A stretch of DNA of 64,000 nt from Heterodontus francisci (GCF_036365525.1 NC_090407.1:24766084-24830083); one strand, 5' to 3'; counted from the stretch's first letter, positions 325-55,920 are shown. Numbers and translations are program-made. Notes: a model not told the origin generated them from the letters alone.

Positions 325-3300
325 GGGTAGGCGGTGGCGTAGTGGTATTATCACTGGACTAGTAACCCTGAGACCCAGGGTATTTCTCTGGGGACATGGA
401 TTCGAATCCCACCACAGCAGAAGGTGGAATTTGAATGTAATTAATAAATCTGGAATTTTAAAAAAAGCTATAGCCATGAAATCATTGTCGATTGTTGTAA
501 AAACCCATCTGGTTCACTAATGTCCTTTGGCGAAGGAAATCTGCTGTCCTTACCTGGTCTGGCCTACATATGAGTCCAGACCCACAGCAATGTGGTTAAC
601 TCTTACATGCCCTCTGAAATGGCCTAGCAAGCCACTCAGTTGTACCTAACCGCTATGAAGTCAATAAAAAGGAATGAAACCGGACGGGCCACCCAGCATC
701 GACCTAGGCACCGGAAACGACAACAGCAAACCCAGCCCTGCCGACCCTGCAAAGTCCTCCTTACTAACATCTGGGGGCTTGTGCCAAGGTTGGGAGAGCT
801 GTCCCACAGACTAGTCAAGCAACAGACTGACATAGTCATACTCACGGAATCATACCTTACAGACAATGTCCCAGACTCTGTAATCACCATCCCCGGGTAT
901 GTCCTGTCCCACCGGCAGGACAGACCCAGCAGAGGTGGCGGGACAGTGGTATACAGTAGGGAGGGAGTTGCCCTGGGAGTCCTCAACATCGACTCCGGAC
1001 TCCATGAAGTCTCATGGCATCAGGTCAAACATGGGCAAGGAACCCTCCTGCTGATTACCACCTACCGCCCTCCCTCAGCTGATGACTCAGTGCTCCACCA
1101 TGTGAACACCACTTGGAGGAAGCACTGAGGGTGGCAAGGGCACAAAATGTACTCTGGGTGGGGGACATCAATGTCCATCACCAAGAGTGGCTCGGTAGCA
1201 CCACTACTGACCAAGATGACCAAGTCCTAAAGGACATAGCTGCTAGACTGGGTCTGCGGCCGGTGGTGAGGGAACCAACACGAGGGAAAAACATACTTGA
1301 CCTCATTCTCACCAATCTACCTGCTGCAGATGCTTCTGTCCATGACTGTATTGGTAGGAGTGACCACCGCACAGTCCTTGTGGAGATGAAGTCCCGCCTT
1401 CACATTGAGGATACCGTCCATCGTTTGGGTGGCACTACCACCGTGCTCAATGGGATAGATTTCGAACAGATCTAGCAATGCAAAACTGGGCATCCATGAG
1501 GCGCTGTGGGCCATCAGCAGCAGCAGAATTGTACTCAGCCACAATCTGTAACCTCATGGCCTGGCATATCCCCCAATCTACCACTACCATCAAGCCAGGA
1601 GACCAACCCTGGTTCAATGAAGAGTGCAGGAGGGCATGCCAAGAGCAGCACCAGGCATACCTCAAAATGAGGTGTCAACCTGGTGAAGCTACAACACAGG
1701 ACTATCTGCGTGCCAAACTGCGTAAGCAACATACGATAGACAGATCTAAGCATTCCCATAATCAACGGATCAGATCTAAGCTCTGCAGTCCTGCCACAAC
1801 CAGCCGTGAATGGTGGTGGACAATTAAATAACTAACTGGAGGAGGTGGCTCCACAAATATCCCCATCCTCAATGATGGGGGAGCCCAGCACATCAGTGCG
1901 AAAGATAAGGCTGAAGCATTTGCAACAATCTTCAGCCGGAAGTGCCGAGTTGATGATCCATCTCGGCCTCCTCCTGAAGTCCCCAGCATCACAGATGCCA
2001 AATTTCAGCCAATTCGATTCACTCCACATGATATCAAGAAATGACTGAAGTCACTGGATACTGCAAAAGCTATGGGCCCTGACACTATTCAGGCAATAGT
2101 ACTGAAGACCTGTGCTCCAGAACTTGCCGCGCCCCTACCCAAGTTGTTCCAGTACAGCTACAACACTGGCATTTACCCTGCAATGTGGAAAATTGCCCAG
2201 GTATGTGCTGTACATAAAAAGCAGGACAAATCCAACCCGGCCAAATACCTCCCCATCAGTCTACTCTCTATAATCAGTAAAGTGATGGAAGGTGTCATCA
2301 ACAGTGCCATCAAGCGGCACTTGCTTAGCAATAACCTGCTCAGTGATGCTCAGTTTGGCTTCTGCCAGGGCCACTCAACTCCTGACCTCATTACAGCCTT
2401 GGTTCAAACATGGACAAAAGGGCTGAACTCAAGAGGTGAGGTGAGAGTGACTGCCCTTGACATCAAGGCAGCATTTGACCGAGTATGGCATCAAGGAGCC
2501 CTAGCAAAACTGAGGTCAGTGGGAATTAGGGGGAAAACCCACCGCTGGCTGGAATCATATCTAGCTTAAAGAAAGATGGTTGTGGTTGTTGGAGGTCAAT
2601 CATCTGATCTCCAGGACATCAATGCAGGAGTTCCTCAGGGTAGTGTCCTAGGCCCAACCATCTTCAGCTGTTTCATCAATGACCTTCCTTCAATCATAAG
2701 GTCAGAAGTGGGGATGTTCGCTGATGATTGCACAATGTTCAGCGCCATTCGTGACTCCTTAGATACTGAAGCAGTCCATGTAGAAATGCAGCAAGACCTG
2801 GACAATATCCAGGCTTGGGCTGATAAGTGGCAAGTAACATTCGCTGCACACATGTGCCAGGCAATGACCATCTCCAACAAGAGAGAATCTAACCATCTTC
2901 CCTTGACATTCAACAGCATTACCATCGCTGAATCCCCCACTATCAACATCTTAGGGGCTACCATTGACCAGAAACTGAACTGGAGTAGCCATATAAATAC
3001 CGTGGCTCCAACAGCAGGTCAGAGGCTAGGAATCCTGAGGCGAGTAACTCACCTCCTGACTCCCCAAAGCCTGTCCACCATCTACAAGGCACAAGTCAGG
3101 AGTGTGATGGAATACTCTCCACTTGCCTGGATGGGTGCAGCTCCAACAACACTCAAGAAGCTCGACACCATCCAGGACAAAGCAGCCCGCTTGATTGGCA
3201 CCCCATCTACAAACAGTCACTCCCTCAACCACCGACGCAAAGTGGCAGCAGTGTGTACCATCTACAAGATGCACTGCAGCAATGCATCAAGGCTCCTTAG

Positions 3301-3615
3301 ACAGCACCTTCCAAACCCGCGACCTCTACCAACTAGAAGGACAAGGGCAGCAAATACATGGGAACACCACCACCTGCAAGTTCCCCTCCAAGTCACACAC
3401 CATCCTGACTTGGAACTATATCGCCGTTCCTTCACTGTCGCTGGGTCAAAATCCTGGAACTCCCTTCCTAACAGCACTGTGGGTGTACCAACCTCACATG
3501 GACTGCAGCTGTTCAAGAAGGCAGCTCACCACCACCTTCTCAAGGGCAATTAGGGATGGGCAATAAATGCTGGCCTAGCCAGCGTCGACCACATCCCATG
3601 AATGAATAAAAAAAA
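325..3615 (+). mobile_element. Near full-length single-ORF LINE (CR1/L2-group, APE endonuclease + reverse transcriptase) with a tRNA-like 5' head; frameshifted
   Basis: Consecutive ORFs from 640 to 3553 give APE motifs (ILTESYL, VGDINVHH, LDLILTN, RSDH) and RT motifs (PISLLSIISKVME, QFGF, ALDIKAAFDRVWH, GVPQGSVLGP, FADD). The 3' tail has AATAAA and ends ATGAATGAATAAAAAAAA. A box TGGCGTAGTGG at 335-345 and B box GGATTCGAATCC at 398-409. Confidence 0.92.
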
Positions 3616-25834: not shown

Positions 25835-28470
25835 ACCAACTATTGTGTAATGAGAGGGGAATAATTGACAATCTAGTGGTGCGAGATCCCTTGGGGACGA
25901 GACCATAATATGATAGAATTCTTCATCAAGATGGAGATTGATGTAGTTGATCCTGAGATAAGGGTCCTGAATCTTAGTAAAGGAAACTAACAAGATGAGG
26001 CGCGAGTTGGCCATGACGGATTGTAAAACGTTACTTAAAGGGATGACGGTGGATAGGCAATGGCAAACATTTAAAGAGCGCATGGATGAACTGCAACAAT
26101 TGTTTATTCCTGTCTGGCGCAAAAGTAAAATGGGAAAGGTAGCCAAACCATGGCTTACAAGGGAAATTAGAGATAGCATTAGATCCAAGGAAGAGGCATA
26201 TAAATTTGCCAGGAAAAACAACAGACCTGAGGATTGGGAGCAGTTTAGAATTCAGCAAAGGAGGACCAAGAGATTGATTAAGAAGGGGAAAATAGAGTAC
26301 GAGAGCAAGCTTGTAGGGAACATAAAAACTGACTGTAAAAGTTTTTATAGGTACGTGAAGAGAAAAAGATTGGTGAAGACAAATGTAGGTCCCTTACAGT
26401 CAGAAACAGGGGAATTTATTGTGGGGAATAAAGAAATGGCTGACCAATGAAATGCATACTTTGGTTCTGTCTTCACAAAGGAGGACACAAATATATCAGA
26501 AATGTTGGGGAACCCAGGGCTTAGTGAGAGAGAGGAACGGAAAGAAATCAGAATTAGTAGAGAAATGGTGTTGGGGAAATTGATGGGATTGAAGGCCAAT
26601 AAATCCCCAGGGCCTGATGGTATGCATCCCAGAGTACTCAAGGAAGTGGCCCTAGAAATAGTCGATGCTTTGGTGGTCATCTTCCAAGATTCTATAGACT
26701 CTGGAACAGTTTCTACAGATTGGAGGGTAGCTAATGTAACCCCACTATTTAAAAAGGGAAGTGGAGAGAAAGCAGGGAATTATAGACCAGTCAGCCTGAC
26801 GTCAGTAGTGGGGAAAATTCTAGAGTCCATTATCAAAGATTCTATAGCAGAGAACTGTGGTAGAATGGGGCAGAGTCAGCATGGATTTACGAAAGGGAAA
26901 TCATGCTTTTTTAAAAATTCATTCATGGGATGTGGGCGTCGCTGGGCAGGCCAGCATTTATTGCCCATCCCTAATTGCCCTTGAGAAGGTGGCAGTGAGC
27001 TGCCAACTAAGTGGCTTGCTAGGCCATTTCAGAGGGCAATCGACAAGGTTTTCATGACCATTATGGCCATAATTCCAGATTTTTTTTTTTATTAATTGAA
27101 TTCAAATTCCACCTTCTGCTGTGGTGGGATTTGAACCCATGTCCCCAGAGCAATACCTGGGTCTCTGGGTTACTAGTCCAGCGACAATACCACTATGCCA
27201 CCACCTCCCCTGCTTGACAAATCTATTAGAATTCTTCAAGGATGTAATTAGTAGAGTTGATGAGGGGGAGCCAGCGGATGCGGTTTATTTGGACTTTCAA
27301 AAGGCTATCGACAAAGTCCCACATAAGAGATTAGCGTGTAAAATTAAAGCGCATGGGATTGGGGGTAGTGTATTGCGATGGATAGAAAATTGGCTGGCGG
27401 ACAGGAAACAAAGAGTAGGGATAAATGGGTCTTTTTCCGAATGGCAGACAGTGACTCGTGGGGTACCGCAGGGATCGGTGCTAGGACCCCAGCTATTCAC
27501 AATATATATTAATGATTTAGATGAGGGAACTAAATGCAATATCTCCAAATTTGCAGATGACACAAAACTGGGTGGGAGGGTGAGTTGCGAGGAGGATGCA
27601 GAGAGGCTTCAGGATGATTTGGACAAGTTCAGTGAGTGGGTTAATGCATGGCAGATGCAGTATAATGTGGATAATTGGGAGGTTATCCACTTTGGTAGCA
27701 AAAACAGGAAGACAGATTATCTGAACGGCTATAAACTGAGAGAGGGGAATATGCAGCGAGACCTGGGTGCTCTCGTACACCAGTCGCTGAAGGTAAGCAT
27801 GCAGGTGCAACACGTGGTAAAAATGGTAAATGGTATGTTGGCCTTCATAGCGAAAGGATTCGAGTACAGGAGCAGGGATGTCTTGCTGCAATTATACAGG
27901 GCCTTGGAGAGGCCACACCTGGAATATTGTGTGCAGTTTTGGTCTCCTTATCTGAGGAAGGATGTTCTTGCTATAGAGGGAGTGCAGCGAAGGTTTACCA
28001 GACTGATTCCTGGGATGGTGGGACTGACATATGAGGAGGGATTGAGTCGGTTAGGATTATATTCGCTAGAGTTCAGAAGAGTGAGGGGGGATCTCATAGA
28101 AACCTATGAGATTCTAACAGGATTTGACAGGGTAGATGTAGGAAGGATGTTCCTGATGGTGGGGGAGTCCAGAAGCAGGGATCAAAGTCTAAGGATACGG
28201 GGTAAACCTTTCAGGACTGAGATGAGGAGAAATTTCTTCACCCAGAGAGTGGTGAGCCTGTGGAATTTGCTACCGCAGAAAGCAGTTTGAGGCCAAAACA
28301 TTGTATGTTTTCAAGAAGGAGTTAGATATAGCTCTAGGGTCTAAAGGGATCAAAGGGTATGGGGCGAAAGCAGGAACAGGTTACTGAGTTGGATGATCAG
28401 CCACGGTCATAATGAATGGTGGAGCAGGCTCGAAGGGCTGAATGGCCTACTCCTGCTCCTATTTTCTAAG
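25835..28470 (+). mobile_element. 5'-truncated CR1 (HER1-like) LINE in an SLC66A1 intron, antisense to the gene
   Basis: ORFs 25995-28290: KSPGPDGMHPRVLKE, NYRPVSLTSVVGK, QHGF, YLDFQKA.DKVPH, GVPQGSVLGP, FADDTKL; tail GGCTCGAAGGGCTGAATGGCCTACTCCTGCTCCTAT. Confidence 0.93.
26909..27210 (-). mobile_element. tRNA-headed SINE / internally deleted derivative of the 325-3615 LINE, nested in CR1
   Basis: The reverse complement matches LINE 325-494, then ~609-642, then 3521-3615. It is flanked by TGCTT at 26904-26908 and 27211-27215. Confidence 0.9.
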
Positions 28471-28474
28471 TTTT

Positions 28475-28760
28475 TAACCATACTTAATTGCCTGAGAAGG
28501 TGGGTAACCTTCTTCTTGTACCATTGCAGAGGTTTGATACAACTGAGTGGCTTGCTAGGCCATTTCAGAGGGCTGTTAAGAGTCAACCTTGTTGGTGTAG
28601 GGCTGGTGTCATACAGGTCAGACCAGCTAGCAACAGCAGATTCCTAAAGGACATTCATGAGCAGCTGGGTCTTTACAACAATCCAACAGTTTCACAGTCA
28701 CTTTTACTGACACCAGCTTTTCATTTTCCAGTTCTTTAAACTGAGTTATGTGATCTCAGA
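28475..28760 (-). mobile_element. Older SINE of the same core/tail family (tail half at ~25760-25825), split by the CR1
   Basis: TAATTGCCTGAGAAGGTGG...CAACTGAGTGGCTTGCTAGGCCATTTCAGAGGGC is the reverse complement of the LINE core 609-642 and tail. Confidence 0.7.
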
Positions 28761-31583: not shown

Positions 31584-32498
31584 CCGGGTTGTCCAACCTT
31601 TTCATGTAGGGGGCCACATTACAATTGTCTTACATAGGGGGTCAATGAGACAATTTCGAAAAGATAAAGACATTAAAAATTTATCTTACTATTAATTAAA
31701 ACAACAAATGTGCATTTGTGTGAAGATGCTTTAATGAGAAGATTAATTTATTGACTTACTTTCTCGTCACTACGTTCGACACTGATTCAGTGAGATACCT
31801 GGCATTTTTTTGTTTGCAGAAGTTGTCAATGTTTGCCCGCACACTTGTGGCGATGCGGAGTATTCCGAATAGATGTCCATCTGTGAGGAGTGATCTTGAT
31901 CACTCTCTTTCCCTCTTTGTCTCTCCCTGTGCCCCCCACCCCGTGTCATCCTCATTCTCTGTTCCTCTCTCTCTTGATCCCCCTTTCTCTCTGTATCCTC
32001 CCCATTCCTCTGTCTGCCCTCTGTCACCCCCTCTTTCCGGCCCTCCCTCTCTCTCTCTGTCTCTGACATTAGCAGAGATTGGGAACGCTCAGCAGAGTAG
32101 CTTTGTGGTTGGTCAGTTTTTTTTTAAATCGCATGTCAGTTTCATAGCTGACAGGTGTTGGGAGTGTGAACAGCAGTTTCCCAACTTCAGACAGATCCAG
32201 ACTTTTCTGGCAGGTTCTGATTTTTTTCTTAAAAGCCCACCAGAAAACCCCAAATCTGTCCAAAATTGGGAAACTGCTGTTCCCGCTCCCAGCGCCTGTC
32301 AGCTGTGAAATTGACTTGCAATTTTTTTTAAAGCCGGTGTGGAAGAAGAGGCCAATGAGAAATTTCTCATCTCTGAAATTACCAGTCACGGACCTCTGGC
32401 AAGGACGAGGAACGGCCTGGTAGTTTATATCCGCGGGCCGGATGGAAACCTTTGGTGTGACAGATCCTAGCCCGCAGGCCATATGTTAGACAACCCTG
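31584..32498. mobile_element. hAT/Charlie-type non-autonomous DNA transposon
   Basis: TIRs CCGGGTTGTCCAAC and GTTAGACAACCCTG; imperfect 8-bp TSD TTCTGGAG / TTCTAGGA resembling the NTCTAGAN target. Confidence 0.75.
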
Positions 32499-33354: not shown

Positions 33355-33639
33355 GAAACCAGGAAGGTAAGTAAGGAGAACAACAGACCAGGAGGATTAG
33401 AAAAAGGAACAGAAGACTGGGGAGAAAATGGGAGACCAAGAGCCTAAAAGAGAAGCTGGAAACTGGGAGGTTGTAAGGAGGCTGGAGGCTGGGAGTCTGA
33501 GAGAAGGGAATGTAACTCTGGCCTGAGCGAAGGGAATAACCTAAGTGGTACTGATTCCAGAACACACAGGAACTGTGGGACCAGTCCAAAAGCAGGTAAG
33601 TGTATTCTCAAAATGAGCTATAGTAACATTCACTCTCCA

Positions 33640-34940
33640 CTAATTGGAGTCATATCTAGTACAAAGGAAAATGCTTGTAGTTGTTGTAGGCAAAACATCG
33701 AAGCCCCAGTACATTTTTGCAGGAGTTCCTCAGGGTAGCGGCTTAGGCCCAACCATCTTCAGCTACTTCACAAATGACCTTCCTTCCGTCATTAAGTCAG
33801 AAGTGGAAATATTCACTGATGATTGCGTTCTGTTCAGTACCATTCACGACTCCTGAGATACTGAAGCAGTCCAGATCCACATGCAGCAAGACCTGGACAA
33901 TAATTATGCTTGGACTGATAAGTGGCATGAAACATTCGCACGTCACAAGTGCCAGACAATGACCATCTCCAACAAAAGAGAATCTAACCATCTCCCCTTG
34001 ACATTCAATGGCATTAGCATCACTGAATTTCCCACTATCAACATCCTGGGGGTTACCATTGACCGGAAGCTTAACTGGACCAGCCATATAAATACCGTGG
34101 CTACAAGAGCAGGTCAGAGGCTGGGAGTTCTGCAGAATGTAACTCACCTCCTGACTCCCCAAAGCCTGTCCCACCATCTGCAAAGCACAAGTCAGGAGTG
34201 TGATGGAATATTCTCCACTTGCCTGGATGAGTGCAGCTCCAACAGCACTCAAGAAGCTTGATACCATCCAGGATAAAGCAGCCTGCTTGATCGGCACCCC
34301 ATCCACCACCAATGCACAGTGGCAGCAGTGTGTACCATAGTTCACTAGGCTAATTTCTGGGATGAAGAGATTGTCTTATAAGGAAAGGTTGGGCCTATAC
34401 TCATTGGAGTTTAGAAGAATGTAAGATAATCTTATTAAAACATGCAAGATTCTGAGGGGGATTGACAGGGTAGATGCTGAGAAGATGTTTCCCCTCATGG
34501 GGGAATCTAGAACTAGGGGGTGCAGTTTCAAAATAATGGGTTTCCTTTTTAAGATGGAGATGAGGAGGAATTTCTTCTCTCAGAGGGTTATTAGCCTTTG
34601 GAATTCTCTTCCCCAGAGAGCAGTGGAGTCTGGGTCATTGAATATATTCAAGGCTGAGTTAGATTTTTGATCTACAATAGAGTCAAAGGTTATGGGGGCC
34701 GACAGGAAAGTGAAGTTAAAGCCACAGTCAGATCAGCCATGATCTTATTGAATGGCAGAGTAGGCTCAAGGGGCCGAAAGGCCTACTTCTCCTATTTCTT
34801 ATGTTCATATACATATACACTACAGCAACTCGCCAAGCCTTCTTCGACAGCACTTGCAAACCCACAACCTCTACCACCTAGAAGGACACGAACAGCAGAC
34901 ACATTGGAACATCACCACCTGCAAGTTCCCCTCCAAGTCA
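33640..34940 (+). mobile_element. 5'-truncated older copy of the 325-3615 LINE family, interrupted by a CR1 3' end (~34340-34810)
   Basis: GVPQGSGLGPTIFSYFTNDLPS, FTDDC, ISNKRESNHLPLTFN. Resumes CTTGCAAACCCACAACCTCTACCACCTAGAAGGAC...CAAGTTCCCCTCCAAGTCACA. Confidence 0.85.
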
Positions 34941-35659
34941 CAGGTTACGTAATTTCAGTGCAGAGAGAAATAGAGTTAACTTTTCAGGTCAATGATCTCT
35001 CATCAGAACCAGAACAAGTTAAGAGATTTAACAGTTTAGAAGCAAGTACAGAGTTGGGAAAAGATTGGGGGTGGGTGCTGCAGGGGTAGAGTGGAAAAGA
35101 GGGGAAGAGGAAATGTAGAACTGCATTAAACAAAAGGGAAGGGCTGTGAAAGGGTGGAGTGGCAAAAGGGATGATTGGACCATAAAGAAACAAAAGATGG
35201 GTCCAGAGGAGGTGTAAAGCAAAGGAATGTTAGGTAGATTGAAATCTTATGTTATCAGTTTTGTGTAACTACTTATTTCACTTGTGTAGGCTTGTATCTG
35301 GGATGTTCTTGAGGTGTAGGCTTTTTGGGAATTCTGTTCACTATTTTACCAGCTGTTGGTCCTCTTTTTCTAAGTTGACCTGTCAAATTTTGTGTCACTG
35401 CTTATTTTCACTTGCTAGAGGTTTGCATGAGGAAATGTTCTTGAGTTGTTTTTCAAGCTGTTGGTGGCCCTTTCCCCCAATTTTCTAGGCTGGGCCTACA
35501 CGTGAAAGCCCCTGGCAACAAGATATTACCTTGGTACAGGATGAAGCTGTTTCCATGTTCTTTTTGGTTGTGCTTGGGGGCGAGATACTGCTAAAAATAA
35601 AGCTGCCATTTGTTTGGTTGGCGCTTCAGGCTCTGAACCAGCCTTGTGCTATTTATTAT

Positions 35660-38347: not shown

Positions 38348-38711
38348 TAGATTAGATTATGATTAGATTAGAGATACAGCACTGAAACAGGCCCTTCGGC
38401 CCACCGAGTCTGTGCCGAACATCAACCACCCATTTATACTAATCCTACACTAATCCCATATTCCTACCAAACATCCCCACCTGTCCCTATATTTCCCTAC
38501 CACCTACCTATACTAGTGACAATTTATAATGGCCAATTTACCTATCAACCTGCAAGTCTTTTGGCTTGTGGGAGGAAACCGGAGCACCCGGAGAAAACCC
38601 ACGCAGACACAGGGAGAACTTGCAAACTCCACACAGGCAGTACCCGGAAACGAACCCGGGTCCCTAGAGCTATGAGGCTGCGGTGCTAACCACTGCGCCA
38701 CTGTGCCGCCC
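38348..38711 (-). mobile_element. HE1/V-SINE
   Basis: tRNA head (GGCACAGTGGCGCAGTGGTTAGCAC...GGGTTCGTTTCC), V-domain (TGTGTGGAGTTTGCAAGTTCTCCC...GGTTTCCTCCCA), HER1-like tail ending (CTAAT)n. Confidence 0.88.
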
Positions 38712-38954
38712 AGTGGTCAAGAACTTGATAGATTAGTAAGAGTGCTGATGGCAGAGCTGAATTTTTAGCAGTTCCACTCAAAGCTGATGAAGGTTTGCAG
38801 TTCATTCAAAACTAACTGCACTTGATAAAAGTTCCAATTTCCATAAATGTGTACCCGTTGGTATACTTTGGTTCATTACAGAATGACCTTGTGCTATTTC
38901 TCACCTCACTTCCATCTTAATAAGTTTAATTGTTCTATTTTTTCCATCTGCCAG

Positions 38955-48353: not shown

Positions 48354-48488
48354 ACTTTGTACTCAGTTATGAGGTGAATACGAGCTGAAAAAGTATGTCT
48401 GGGACTTATCCTGTTCCAATAGTTAATGATAAGTGAATGCTATCTCTTACCCTATAGTACTTGACTGACATCATGGGGCAAGAACCAT

Positions 48489-48800
48489 GGGGTGACACAG
48501 TGGCGCAATGGTTAGCACCGCAGCCTCACAGCTCCAGAGACCTGGGTTCAATTCTGGGTACTGCCTGTGCGGAGTTTGCAAGTTCTCCCTGTGACCGCGT
48601 GGGTTTTCCCTGGGTGTTCTGGTTTCCTTCCACCGCCAAAGACTTGCAGGTGATAGGTAAATTGGCCATTGTAAATTGCCCCTAGTGTAGGTAGGGAATA
48701 TGGGATTACTGTAGGGTTAGTATAAATGGGTGGTTATTGGTCGGCACAGACTCGGTTGGCCGAAGGGCCTGTTTCTGTGCTGTATCTCTAAAACAAAAAA
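48489..48800 (+). mobile_element. HE1/V-SINE
   Basis: CACAGTGGCGCAATGGTTAGCACCGCAGCCTCACAGC, V-domain, tail GGCCGAAGGGCCTGTTTCTGTGCTGTATCTCTAAAA. Confidence 0.88.
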
Positions 48801-49515
48801 GAAATTATAGGCTTCTGTAGATCTGAAACAGCTGGGAAATAAATACATGAATGTGTGACTAACTGTGTTTACTGTAGACTGTCACTGACCCTGCCAATCT
48901 AAAATGGATGCTAGCTCACCAATGAATTGTGTTTCTTGCACAATTTGTACCTTGAAGTCGAGCTCTGGAACTCAGCACTTTTATTTAGCAAAAAAACCCA
49001 GATGAAAGTCCAAGGTCCACAGTGCACGGCATCATCAAGTTGTAAAGTGCATGAGAAGAATGAAGACAAATCATTAAGTAGTGGTAGGTGACACTGAGCC
49101 TAGGTTTTAAAAGCCTGTGTAGCTTGTAGGAGGAAAGGGAGACTGAGGGGGTACAAGAAATTCCAGTTTTGAGATTTTGGGGAGGGAAAAATAAGTTTGC
49201 AGACATAGGAAATATTAATCCTGTGGGCAGGAGCTGTTGGTCATGTGCAGGTTCCATTTAGGGAAGAAATCTAAAAACTAACTGGAACATTTTTCTGCAT
49301 ACCTTTCTTGTTTTTCCTGTATTGCAGCAGTTTCACAGCTAAATTAGTTGCTGAGCTAATTAACTAGCCGTTTACACTGATGCACAGGTATGTTTTCAGT
49401 TTGCATTTACACTGTAGTCCTGTTTAAAGTAATTTAAATAAAGTTAGTACTATCTGAAATTTGAACATTGATCTCATTTTCATTTCCCTTAGCCCTTTTG
49501 TTTTTGTTGCTGTTC

Positions 49516-49871
49516 TATAAATCATTGATATCCAGCACTGTGATCTCTCATATGATATAAATCATTGATATCCAGCACTGTGATCTCTCATATGATATAA
49601 ATCATTGATATCCAGCACTGTGATCTCTCATATGATATAAATCATTGATATCCAGCACTGTGATCTCTCATATGATATAAATCATTGATATCCAGCACTG
49701 TGATCTCTCATATGATATAAATCATTGATATCCAGCACTGTGATCTCTCATATGATATAAATCATTGATATCCAGCACTGTGATCTCTCATATGATATAA
49801 ATCATTGATATCCAGCACTGTGATCTCTCATATGATATAAATCATTGATATCCAGCACTGTGATCTCTCAT
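49516..49871. repeat. Perfect minisatellite, 40-bp unit x8.9
   Basis: TATAAATCATTGATATCCAGCACTGTGATCTCTCATATGA; ATCATTGATA recurs every 40 bp from 49521 to 49841. Confidence 0.97.
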
Positions 49872-50379
49872 GAGACATCAGCGATTTAAATTTTCAGATG
49901 TGAACTAAACTTCAAAAATGCTTATCAGGACTGATTCTTCTCAAAATTGGATTTTTTTTTTAACCACCTAAAACTCCAGCCATAAGATTTATTTGTAGAA
50001 CATAACACACTTAATCACCCACCATCCACTCAGACTGAGACATAGCTCTACATGAAGTGCACAACAGAAAGAATTGTTTCTCCCCTGGCCTCATGCCTCA
50101 CACCTCACACAAGGTTCATCCCACCTTACTTCATCTAACCCCATCAGCATAACTTTCCATTCCCTTCTCCCTCATGTACTTATCTAGCCTCCACTTAAAT
50201 GCATCTATGTTACTCAGTACAAACACTCCATGTTATTTTTTTCCAAAGGGAACTAAACCCAATGAAAGATGACCTCTATCATTGACTGACATTTTAATTA
50301 AGTTTGTATGGGCTATTGGGAATTGTTACTTATTTGAACACAAACAGGCAAGTAAACATAAGCACGCTCTTCTTATCGA

Positions 50380-55567: not shown

Positions 55568-55920
55568 GGACAGCCCAATGGCACAGTGGTTAGCACTGCA
55601 GCCTCACAGCTCCAGCGACCTGGGTTCGATTCTGGGTACTGCCTGTGTGGAGTTTGCAAGATCTCCCTGTGACTGCGTGGGTTTCTGCCAGGTGCTCCGG
55701 TTTCCTCCCACAGCCAAAGACTTGCAGGTTGATAGGTAAATTGGCCATTGGAAATTGTCCCTAGTATAGGTAGGTGGTAGGGAAATTGAGGGACAGTGGG
55801 GATGTGGTAGGAATATGGGATTAATGTAGCATTAGTATAAATGGGTGGTTGATGGCCGGCACAGACTCGGTGGGCTGAAGGGCCTGTTTCAGTGCTGTAT
55901 CTCTAAATAAATAAATAAAA
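55568..55920 (+). mobile_element. HE1/V-SINE
   Basis: TGGCACAGTGGTTAGCACTGCAGCCTCACAGC...GGGTTCGATTC, V-domain, tail ending (TAAA)n. Confidence 0.88.

Follow-up and report, generated by a model that had tools for sequence, protein, structure and literature searches.

The element at positions 325–3,615 of the window (the whole 64,000-nucleotide stretch of Heterodontus francisci DNA analyzed here) raises the question of how a protein-coding retrotransposon that begins like a SINE is transcribed. In the standard division, LINEs code for protein and use Pol II, and SINEs are non-coding and use Pol III (PMC10886601). A reading made from the sequence alone had interpreted this locus as a coding LINE transcribed by Pol III. 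Our results partly support that interpretation, in which we infer both Pol III transcription and cap-independent translation. We lean toward a single-ORF APE + RT LINE that has its own tRNA-derived 5' end with A and B boxes and would be transcribed by Pol III from end to end.

Anatomy and coding capacity of the element

The element lies on the plus strand. A G run at 325, the defined 5' end of the family, opens a tRNA-derived head with a long variable arm (325–420). The A box, TGGCGTAGTGG, was confirmed at 335–345, and its majority letters are identical in the old and young subfamilies. The B box, GGATTCGAATCC, also lies where the sequence-only reading had placed it, at 398–409, but it is not intact: the family form is GTTCRAATCC at 400–409, and base 400 is mutated to A here, compared with G in other copies. 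An AT-rich linker (421–495) leads to a conserved core (496–642) that is common to the SINE forms and is a candidate translation or RNA-structure element. After a shared TAG at 625–627, an open basic (K/R-rich) leader (628–750) runs in the same frame as the APE domain. The distance from the 5' end to APE is ~425 nt, with stops in all frames, and this leaves no room for an ORF1, as had been proposed.

The APE and RT coding sequences and the tail were found in the places first assigned to them. The APE endonuclease domain spans 751–1420, an extent defined by aligning the window sequence to a full-length homolog from the NIWGL motif onward, and includes a Pfam Exo_endo_phos_2 match (E 9e-11) at ~1104–1376. 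The reverse transcriptase domain lies at 2219–2965 (Pfam RVT_1, E 3e-15 and 2e-12). Both belong to a single family-wide open frame of 975 codons (628–3553), and the element ends at 3550–3615 with a stem-loop, whose internal loop holds AATAAA at 3562, an ATGA repeat, and a short A tail. The window copy is a dead member of an abundant shark-type retrotransposon family. Its frame carries two frameshifts, caused by 1-nt deletions near 1102, which breaks APE, and near 1424, and three stops, ending at 1831, 2044, and 2569.

A column-wise stop count over 25 aligned near-full copies showed that the only stops shared in this frame are those at 625 and 3551, so that it is free of shared stops from 628 to 3551. 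One copy elsewhere in the genome, L172, retains a natural open frame of 939 amino acids. The family ORF is under purifying selection during amplification. When 39 older headed copies were compared with 99 young ones, they differed at 103 of 3292 columns; within the ORF, 56 differences were synonymous and 21 nonsynonymous over all codons (pN/pS 0.116), and 42 and 18, respectively, after removal of CpG codons (ratio 0.126). The same ratio for changes among young copies was 0.56–0.61. The low value between the old and young waves indicates selection on the protein of the headed lineage throughout both.

Named shark and ray records match parts of the protein at 72–87% identity, which is why we call the family shark-type, and the closest full-length homologs, at 39–45% identity, are invertebrate elements or elements without a name. 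The family ORFs cluster apart from the CR1-like and RTE-like ORFs of the same genome at 65% identity, the labels of these controls being our own reading of their sequence. Relatives in metagenomes, used as a control, are distant only (best 35% identity to L172) and have no similarity to the head or core; among viral contigs there was one weak match. Five annotated shark or ray host proteins (P0124, P0133, P0137, P0139, and P0140) contain pieces of the family's LINE protein, probably as gene-model errors or exonized fragments.

The window holds three further pieces of this system. A SINE form on the minus strand (26909–27210), inside a CR1-like copy, consists of head and core joined at 642 to the tail at 3520 and has, in addition, a private internal deletion. 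An older, degraded core-plus-tail fragment lies at 28470–28700 on the minus strand, and an older 5'-truncated LINE copy of the same family, split by another repeat, at 33632–34942 on the plus strand. Other repeats in the window are a near-perfect 40-bp tandem array (49436–49971); another SINE-like repeat with a CR1-type tail, which we take to be HE1-like (38368–38717, 48484–48804, and 55568–55919); and an inverted repeat with 85-nt arms 29 nt apart (32126–32324), possibly a small DNA-transposon remnant.

The head as a family trait

A SINE that happens to lie beside, or is fused to, a 5'-truncated LINE would give the same picture at a single locus, with the true master carrying an ordinary 5' UTR and ORF1. 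SINE-LINE chimeras formed by template switching are a known route (PMC5786205). We looked at how often the head-core-APE junction recurs. A search of the 6.0-Gb genome with the core-APE junction (600–900) returned 3013 loci, which are candidates and not a copy count. The junction thus recurs at thousands of candidate loci and is not unique to this one, an outcome that the sequence-only reading had named as a refutation. All 39 other scored matches were retrieved, and 34 of them extend into the head: 25 begin at 325–327 and 9 within the head, and the remaining 5 are truncated in the linker or core. Their flanks are unrelated.

To avoid the bias of a junction query, we also took 60 of 149 copies found by their RT protein (the first 56 plus 4 with long frames). 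The head was reached in one alignment in 13 of the 60 and by colinear pieces in 3 more; 2 apparent chains proved to be separate SINEs, and 3 copies extend no further 5' than 428–661 (linker, core, or leader). The other 39 end 3' of position 700, a pattern of frequent 5' truncation, a fixed 3' end, and dispersed copies. Among these 60 RT-picked copies, which are the only ones in which alternative 5' ends were checked, there was no other shared upstream part, no ORF1, and no full-length copy with a conventional 5' UTR.

The same head is present in an older wave (39 copies, ~10% from the column majority) and in a young wave (~3.5%); searches with the older window copy retrieved mostly the young family. 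Contigs of five other organisms (C, D, E, F, and G) also bridge the core-APE junction. Headed copies in two age waves, an ORF pN/pS of ~0.12, the lack of an alternative 5' end among the 60 RT-picked copies, and a junction found in the contigs of several other organisms are difficult to reconcile with a chimera that is non-autonomous or due to chance. This explanation is largely refuted, and we give it very little credence. That the headed architecture and autonomy are real and family-wide is, in our judgment, close to certain.

ARAGORN called tRNA-Thr(AGT) in five of six family loci and tRNA-Ile in the sixth, with no tRNA call on the window copy. An Rfam E-value scan of one head plus core gave only sub-threshold matches, the best being tRNA-Sec at 19.7 bits against a gathering score of 47, and no ribozyme; the window had no Rfam match at the gathering score. 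Between old and young copies the head has diverged by 8.8%, about the synonymous rate. The changes miss the A and B boxes, but by a rough chance estimate (P ~0.1) this conservation is not statistically significant.

The base preceding the 5' G run is A in 18 of 35 LINE and 13 of 22 SINE copies, which would fit either a start that sometimes lies at this A or a bias in the choice of target site. Two full-length copies, L169 and L208, lie within ~15 nt of each other's position in a shared upstream repeat (84.5% identical), which we read as two insertions into the same repeat type, by chance or through a mild target preference.

Terminators, start codons, and the choice of polymerase

The proposal of Pol III transcription had drawn in part on the near absence of T4 runs. 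The sense strand indeed has TTTT at 456–459, in the linker, and none in 460–3615; the neighboring CR1-like copy has five T4 runs in 2326 nt of sense strand, and the SINE-form copy at 26909–27210 reads TT at the place that matches 456–459. This T4 is private to the window copy (1 of 25 aligned near-full copies). Shared T4 runs number zero in both waves, compared with 15 A4, 10–13 C4, and 8 G4 runs, and the A, C, and G runs agree with expectation. On the last of the three refuting conditions named by the sequence-only reading the outcome is mixed: T4 absence exceeds what base composition alone explains (0 against 4.9 expected, P ~0.01), but it loses significance once TT depletion or codon context is kept (dinucleotide null, P 0.08–0.15; codon shuffle, P 0.05–0.17; CpG-context codon shuffle, P 0.16–0.42). 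Taken alone, T4 absence is no more than suggestive.

The deficit is clearer for T3 runs and for T|T codon junctions; L172 has 6 T3 runs against 10.5–13.3 expected (P 0.001–0.03), and RTE-like ORFs likewise avoid some T|T codon junctions. Seven-nucleotide windows with at least five T number 0–1 against ~14 expected. Phe, which needs TTY, makes up 2.0% of L172, and all 98 long homologs are higher (lowest 2.3%), a comparison uncontrolled for GC content.

The minimal Pol III terminators are TTTT and TVTTT (PMC8466645). L172, the longest natural ORF, has none of either against 4.0–4.5 expected (P<=0.003), and five other natural family ORFs gave P values of 0.000–0.13; the six family ORFs are one lineage and not six tests, and the TVTTT set was chosen after the T4 test, from the published definition. 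In five CR1-like or RTE-like ORFs from this genome the deficit does not reach significance (P 0.065–0.97), with two of them leaning in that direction too (P 0.065–0.12). In 64 distant LINE ORFs, T4 counts mostly follow the codon shuffle, with 3 of 64 at P<0.05.

The entire older subfamily and the ORF are free of T4 and TVTTT. The youngest head has one TATTT, a moderate Pol III terminator motif, at 381–385 (31 of 47 young copies), and this motif is not shared in old copies. TATTT stopped 42–50% of Pol III transcripts in mammalian assays (PMC8466645), and its presence in the youngest head is a complication that counts against Pol III. The SINE copies tabulated have a different base at this site. 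No SINE form was seen among the 43 youngest heads that make up the TATTT group, within a SINE sample that is query-biased.

The same architecture could also be served by Pol II, which would make the full-length coding RNA from a promoter in the head or core or by read-through. The A and B boxes would then mainly serve the SINE offspring, and the T-run deficit would reflect avoided U-rich splice, polyadenylation, or decay signals. We regard this as a serious but less probable explanation. It fits the general finding that LINEs are Pol II transcripts (PMC10886601), the TATTT of the youngest head, and the lack of significance of T4 absence alone under the dinucleotide and context nulls. AATAAA occurs at 443, 663, and 3562, and a Pol II RNA would presumably gain from the lack of U-rich downstream elements. 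Less easily accommodated are the common first nucleotide of the LINE and SINE, ~10 nt before the A box, and the CR1-like and RTE-like controls, presumed to be Pol II transcripts, which are without the terminator deficit. A cap leaves an extra G at the 5' junction. Such a G is not in excess before the 5' end of the LINEs (8 of 35, compared with 3 of 22 SINEs), although this is a weak test. RNA-labeled contigs cover the element; these contigs carry no information on start, strand, level, or cap.

A further point concerns translation. No conserved in-frame AUG precedes APE in either wave, and in old copies no in-frame ATG was present within the first 260 codons scanned. In contrast, 9–11 ATGs are shared in the 5' region (eleven in young copies). 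Many upstream AUGs and no in-frame AUG are poorly suited to cap scanning by a Pol II transcript. Two candidate start codons were rejected. ATG 655, the sole ATG in frame ahead of APE, is the CpG-decay state of ACG: it was present in 28 of 39 copies of the query-biased first sample, compared with 1 of 29 RT-picked copies (ACG 15, ACA 13, ATG 1). ATG 674 is out of frame and not common to old copies. Because no conserved in-frame AUG is available, initiation would have to be non-canonical.

The core is a candidate for this role. At its non-CpG sites, old and young copies differ at 3 of 145 (2.1%), compared with 7.5% at synonymous sites, indicating that the core is constrained. Most young copies (50 of 56) and about half of the old ones (15 of 31) have a 120-nt spacer, and the leader length preserves the frame in most copies. 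The core showed no unusual fold (z = -0.12), head plus core is no stabler than its shuffles, no IRES-like fold was detected, and there was no Rfam match to the core at the gathering score. The core and tail of the family presumably resemble those of the salmonid AvaIII SINE.

Roles could also be divided, with Pol III making an uncapped template and the protein coming in trans from a small number of copies that neighboring host promoters express through Pol II. Such an arrangement would explain the promoter position and the terminator loss with no need to translate an uncapped RNA. The missing AUG would still be left over, and the purifying selection that the ORF experienced as the lineage amplified is easier to understand under cis action. 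We consider this division improbable, and end-to-end transcription by Pol III is the reading that we retain.

SINE forms, element ends, and relation to known systems

The SINE forms are short (~0.4 kb) and non-coding, compared with a 3.3-kb LINE with a selected 975-codon frame, and SINE and LINE begin at the identical nucleotide with the same flank pattern. Their internal junctions vary (641/3540, 642/3520, 644/~3500, and 678/3484), with the 3' breakpoints falling within the last codons of the ORF, and the same joints recur in contigs. In a tree of 118 5' modules (84 LINE, 34 SINE), for which the bootstrap was not fully settled, LINE and SINE modules occur on both sides of a 100/97 branch, which forces at least two label changes. 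The simplest reading is that the SINEs arose by repeated internal deletions of the headed LINE, although repeated exchange of heads could produce such mixing as well. The head itself was probably first captured from a SINE or a tRNA gene.

At the 3' end, the stem-loop has a predicted fold of -23.9 kcal/mol (z = -3.8; 0 of 200 shuffles were equally stable), and most copies end alike. The flanks of 54 full-length copies, LINE and SINE together, were compared with a shuffled pairing. Target site duplications (TSDs) of at least 3 nt were present in 22 (~10 expected) and those of at least 5 nt in 7 (~1 expected). The TSDs that the sequence-only reading had anticipated are thus short and confined to a minority of these copies, and no clear long ones were found among them.

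A run of at least four T precedes the A tail in 25 of 112 element ends (e.g. L048, L051, L057, L069, and window positions 26909–26920). The combined length of T and A stays at ~10–11, and few ends have exactly three T. We considered this run as a built-in terminator and did not adopt that reading, as the run is of variable length and short A tails are reported to gain T after insertion. The terminal T runs are probably such changes at T/A junctions; they would function as a Pol III terminator.

These features can be assembled into a mechanism. TFIIIC and TFIIIB would start Pol III at ~325. With TTTT and TVTTT purged from the coding strand, the polymerase would be able to continue for 3.3 kb and would stop at the first T run that it meets in the flank. 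Translation of the resulting RNA, which would lack a cap, would begin at a non-AUG codon within the conserved core or shortly after it. Once bound to the 3' stem-loop, the protein would prime reverse transcription at a nick, leaving a TSD that is short or absent. As the element has a SINE-like promoter within its own sequence, transcribable SINEs would arise repeatedly by internal deletion. For the model as a whole (a terminator-purged 3.3-kb Pol III RNA, uncapped non-AUG translation, and SINEs spawned by internal deletion), we judge the case to be evenly balanced.

The family unites LINE coding and a SINE promoter in one long-lived unit. If the RNA is made by Pol III, it would be a long messenger produced naturally by that polymerase, and it would allow initiation without a cap or an AUG to be tested in a vertebrate. 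If Pol II makes it instead, the family would still provide a route by which a SINE can arise in a single step, together with a candidate source of the conserved SINE core, which Kojima 2018 called enigmatic (PMC5786205). If the model is true, a conserved SINE core can serve as a LINE translation leader.

Among the titles and abstract openings searched, a set with Repbase, Dfam, and most subscription papers outside it, there was no shark coding LINE with a tRNA head and no Pol III-transcribed autonomous LINE; the family may already be catalogued in Repbase or Dfam. Earlier work has reported mRNA made by Pol III, and Pol III has also been claimed to act at the human L1 promoter. Cassandra, Helenus, and Ajax TRIMs likewise carry Pol III promoter sequence but are non-coding LTR elements (PMC10886601). 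RTE-1_DAn is a LINE said to hold a tRNA-like sequence, with its position and role unstated where it is mentioned (PMC5786205), and within the literature searched it is named in that one paper only. MetaSINE has a 66-bp Meta-domain directly after its tRNA head, and the post-head region of our family is, by eye, unlike the bivalve alignments (PMC4824008).

Closer parallels are found among the SINE2 elements, tRNA-derived SINEs that end in a LINE tail (HE1/HER1 and SacSINE1 in sharks); they likewise have a tRNA head with A and B boxes, a conserved core, and a 3' stem-loop tail common to a LINE (PMC3747384; PMC5499810). In the present family, by contrast, head and core reside on the coding LINE itself, and all of the SINE sequence, not the tail alone, is common to the LINE; HE1 and SacSINE1 were compared by description and not by sequence. 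Bipartite non-autonomous LINE derivatives (RTE, Ingi, Vingi, and R2 SIDEs) are likewise short elements in which an internal deletion has left only LINE 5' and 3' ends (PMC5786205; PMC3774820). The published model has a Pol II-type bipartite element that later gains a tRNA head by template switch (PMC5786205), whereas in our family the autonomous parent already carries the head.

ORF1-less APE-type LINEs likewise have one ORF with APE and RT (PMC3894237). Upstream of the distant relatives we found no tRNA gene (ARAGORN, 39 metagenome loci) and no A/B-box pair. R2, as well as L1Tc/Ingi, likewise has a single ORF, and its coding RNA, as we propose for our family, is not an ordinary capped mRNA; R2 RNA is cleaved by a ribozyme from a 28S rRNA co-transcript (PMC3774820). 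The endonuclease of R2 is restriction-like, its target in the rDNA is fixed, and it uses an HDV-like ribozyme, whereas our family encodes APE, has dispersed targets and an internal promoter of tRNA type, and gave no Rfam ribozyme match. Among these systems, R2 offers the best functional precedent for cap-independent translation of a LINE.
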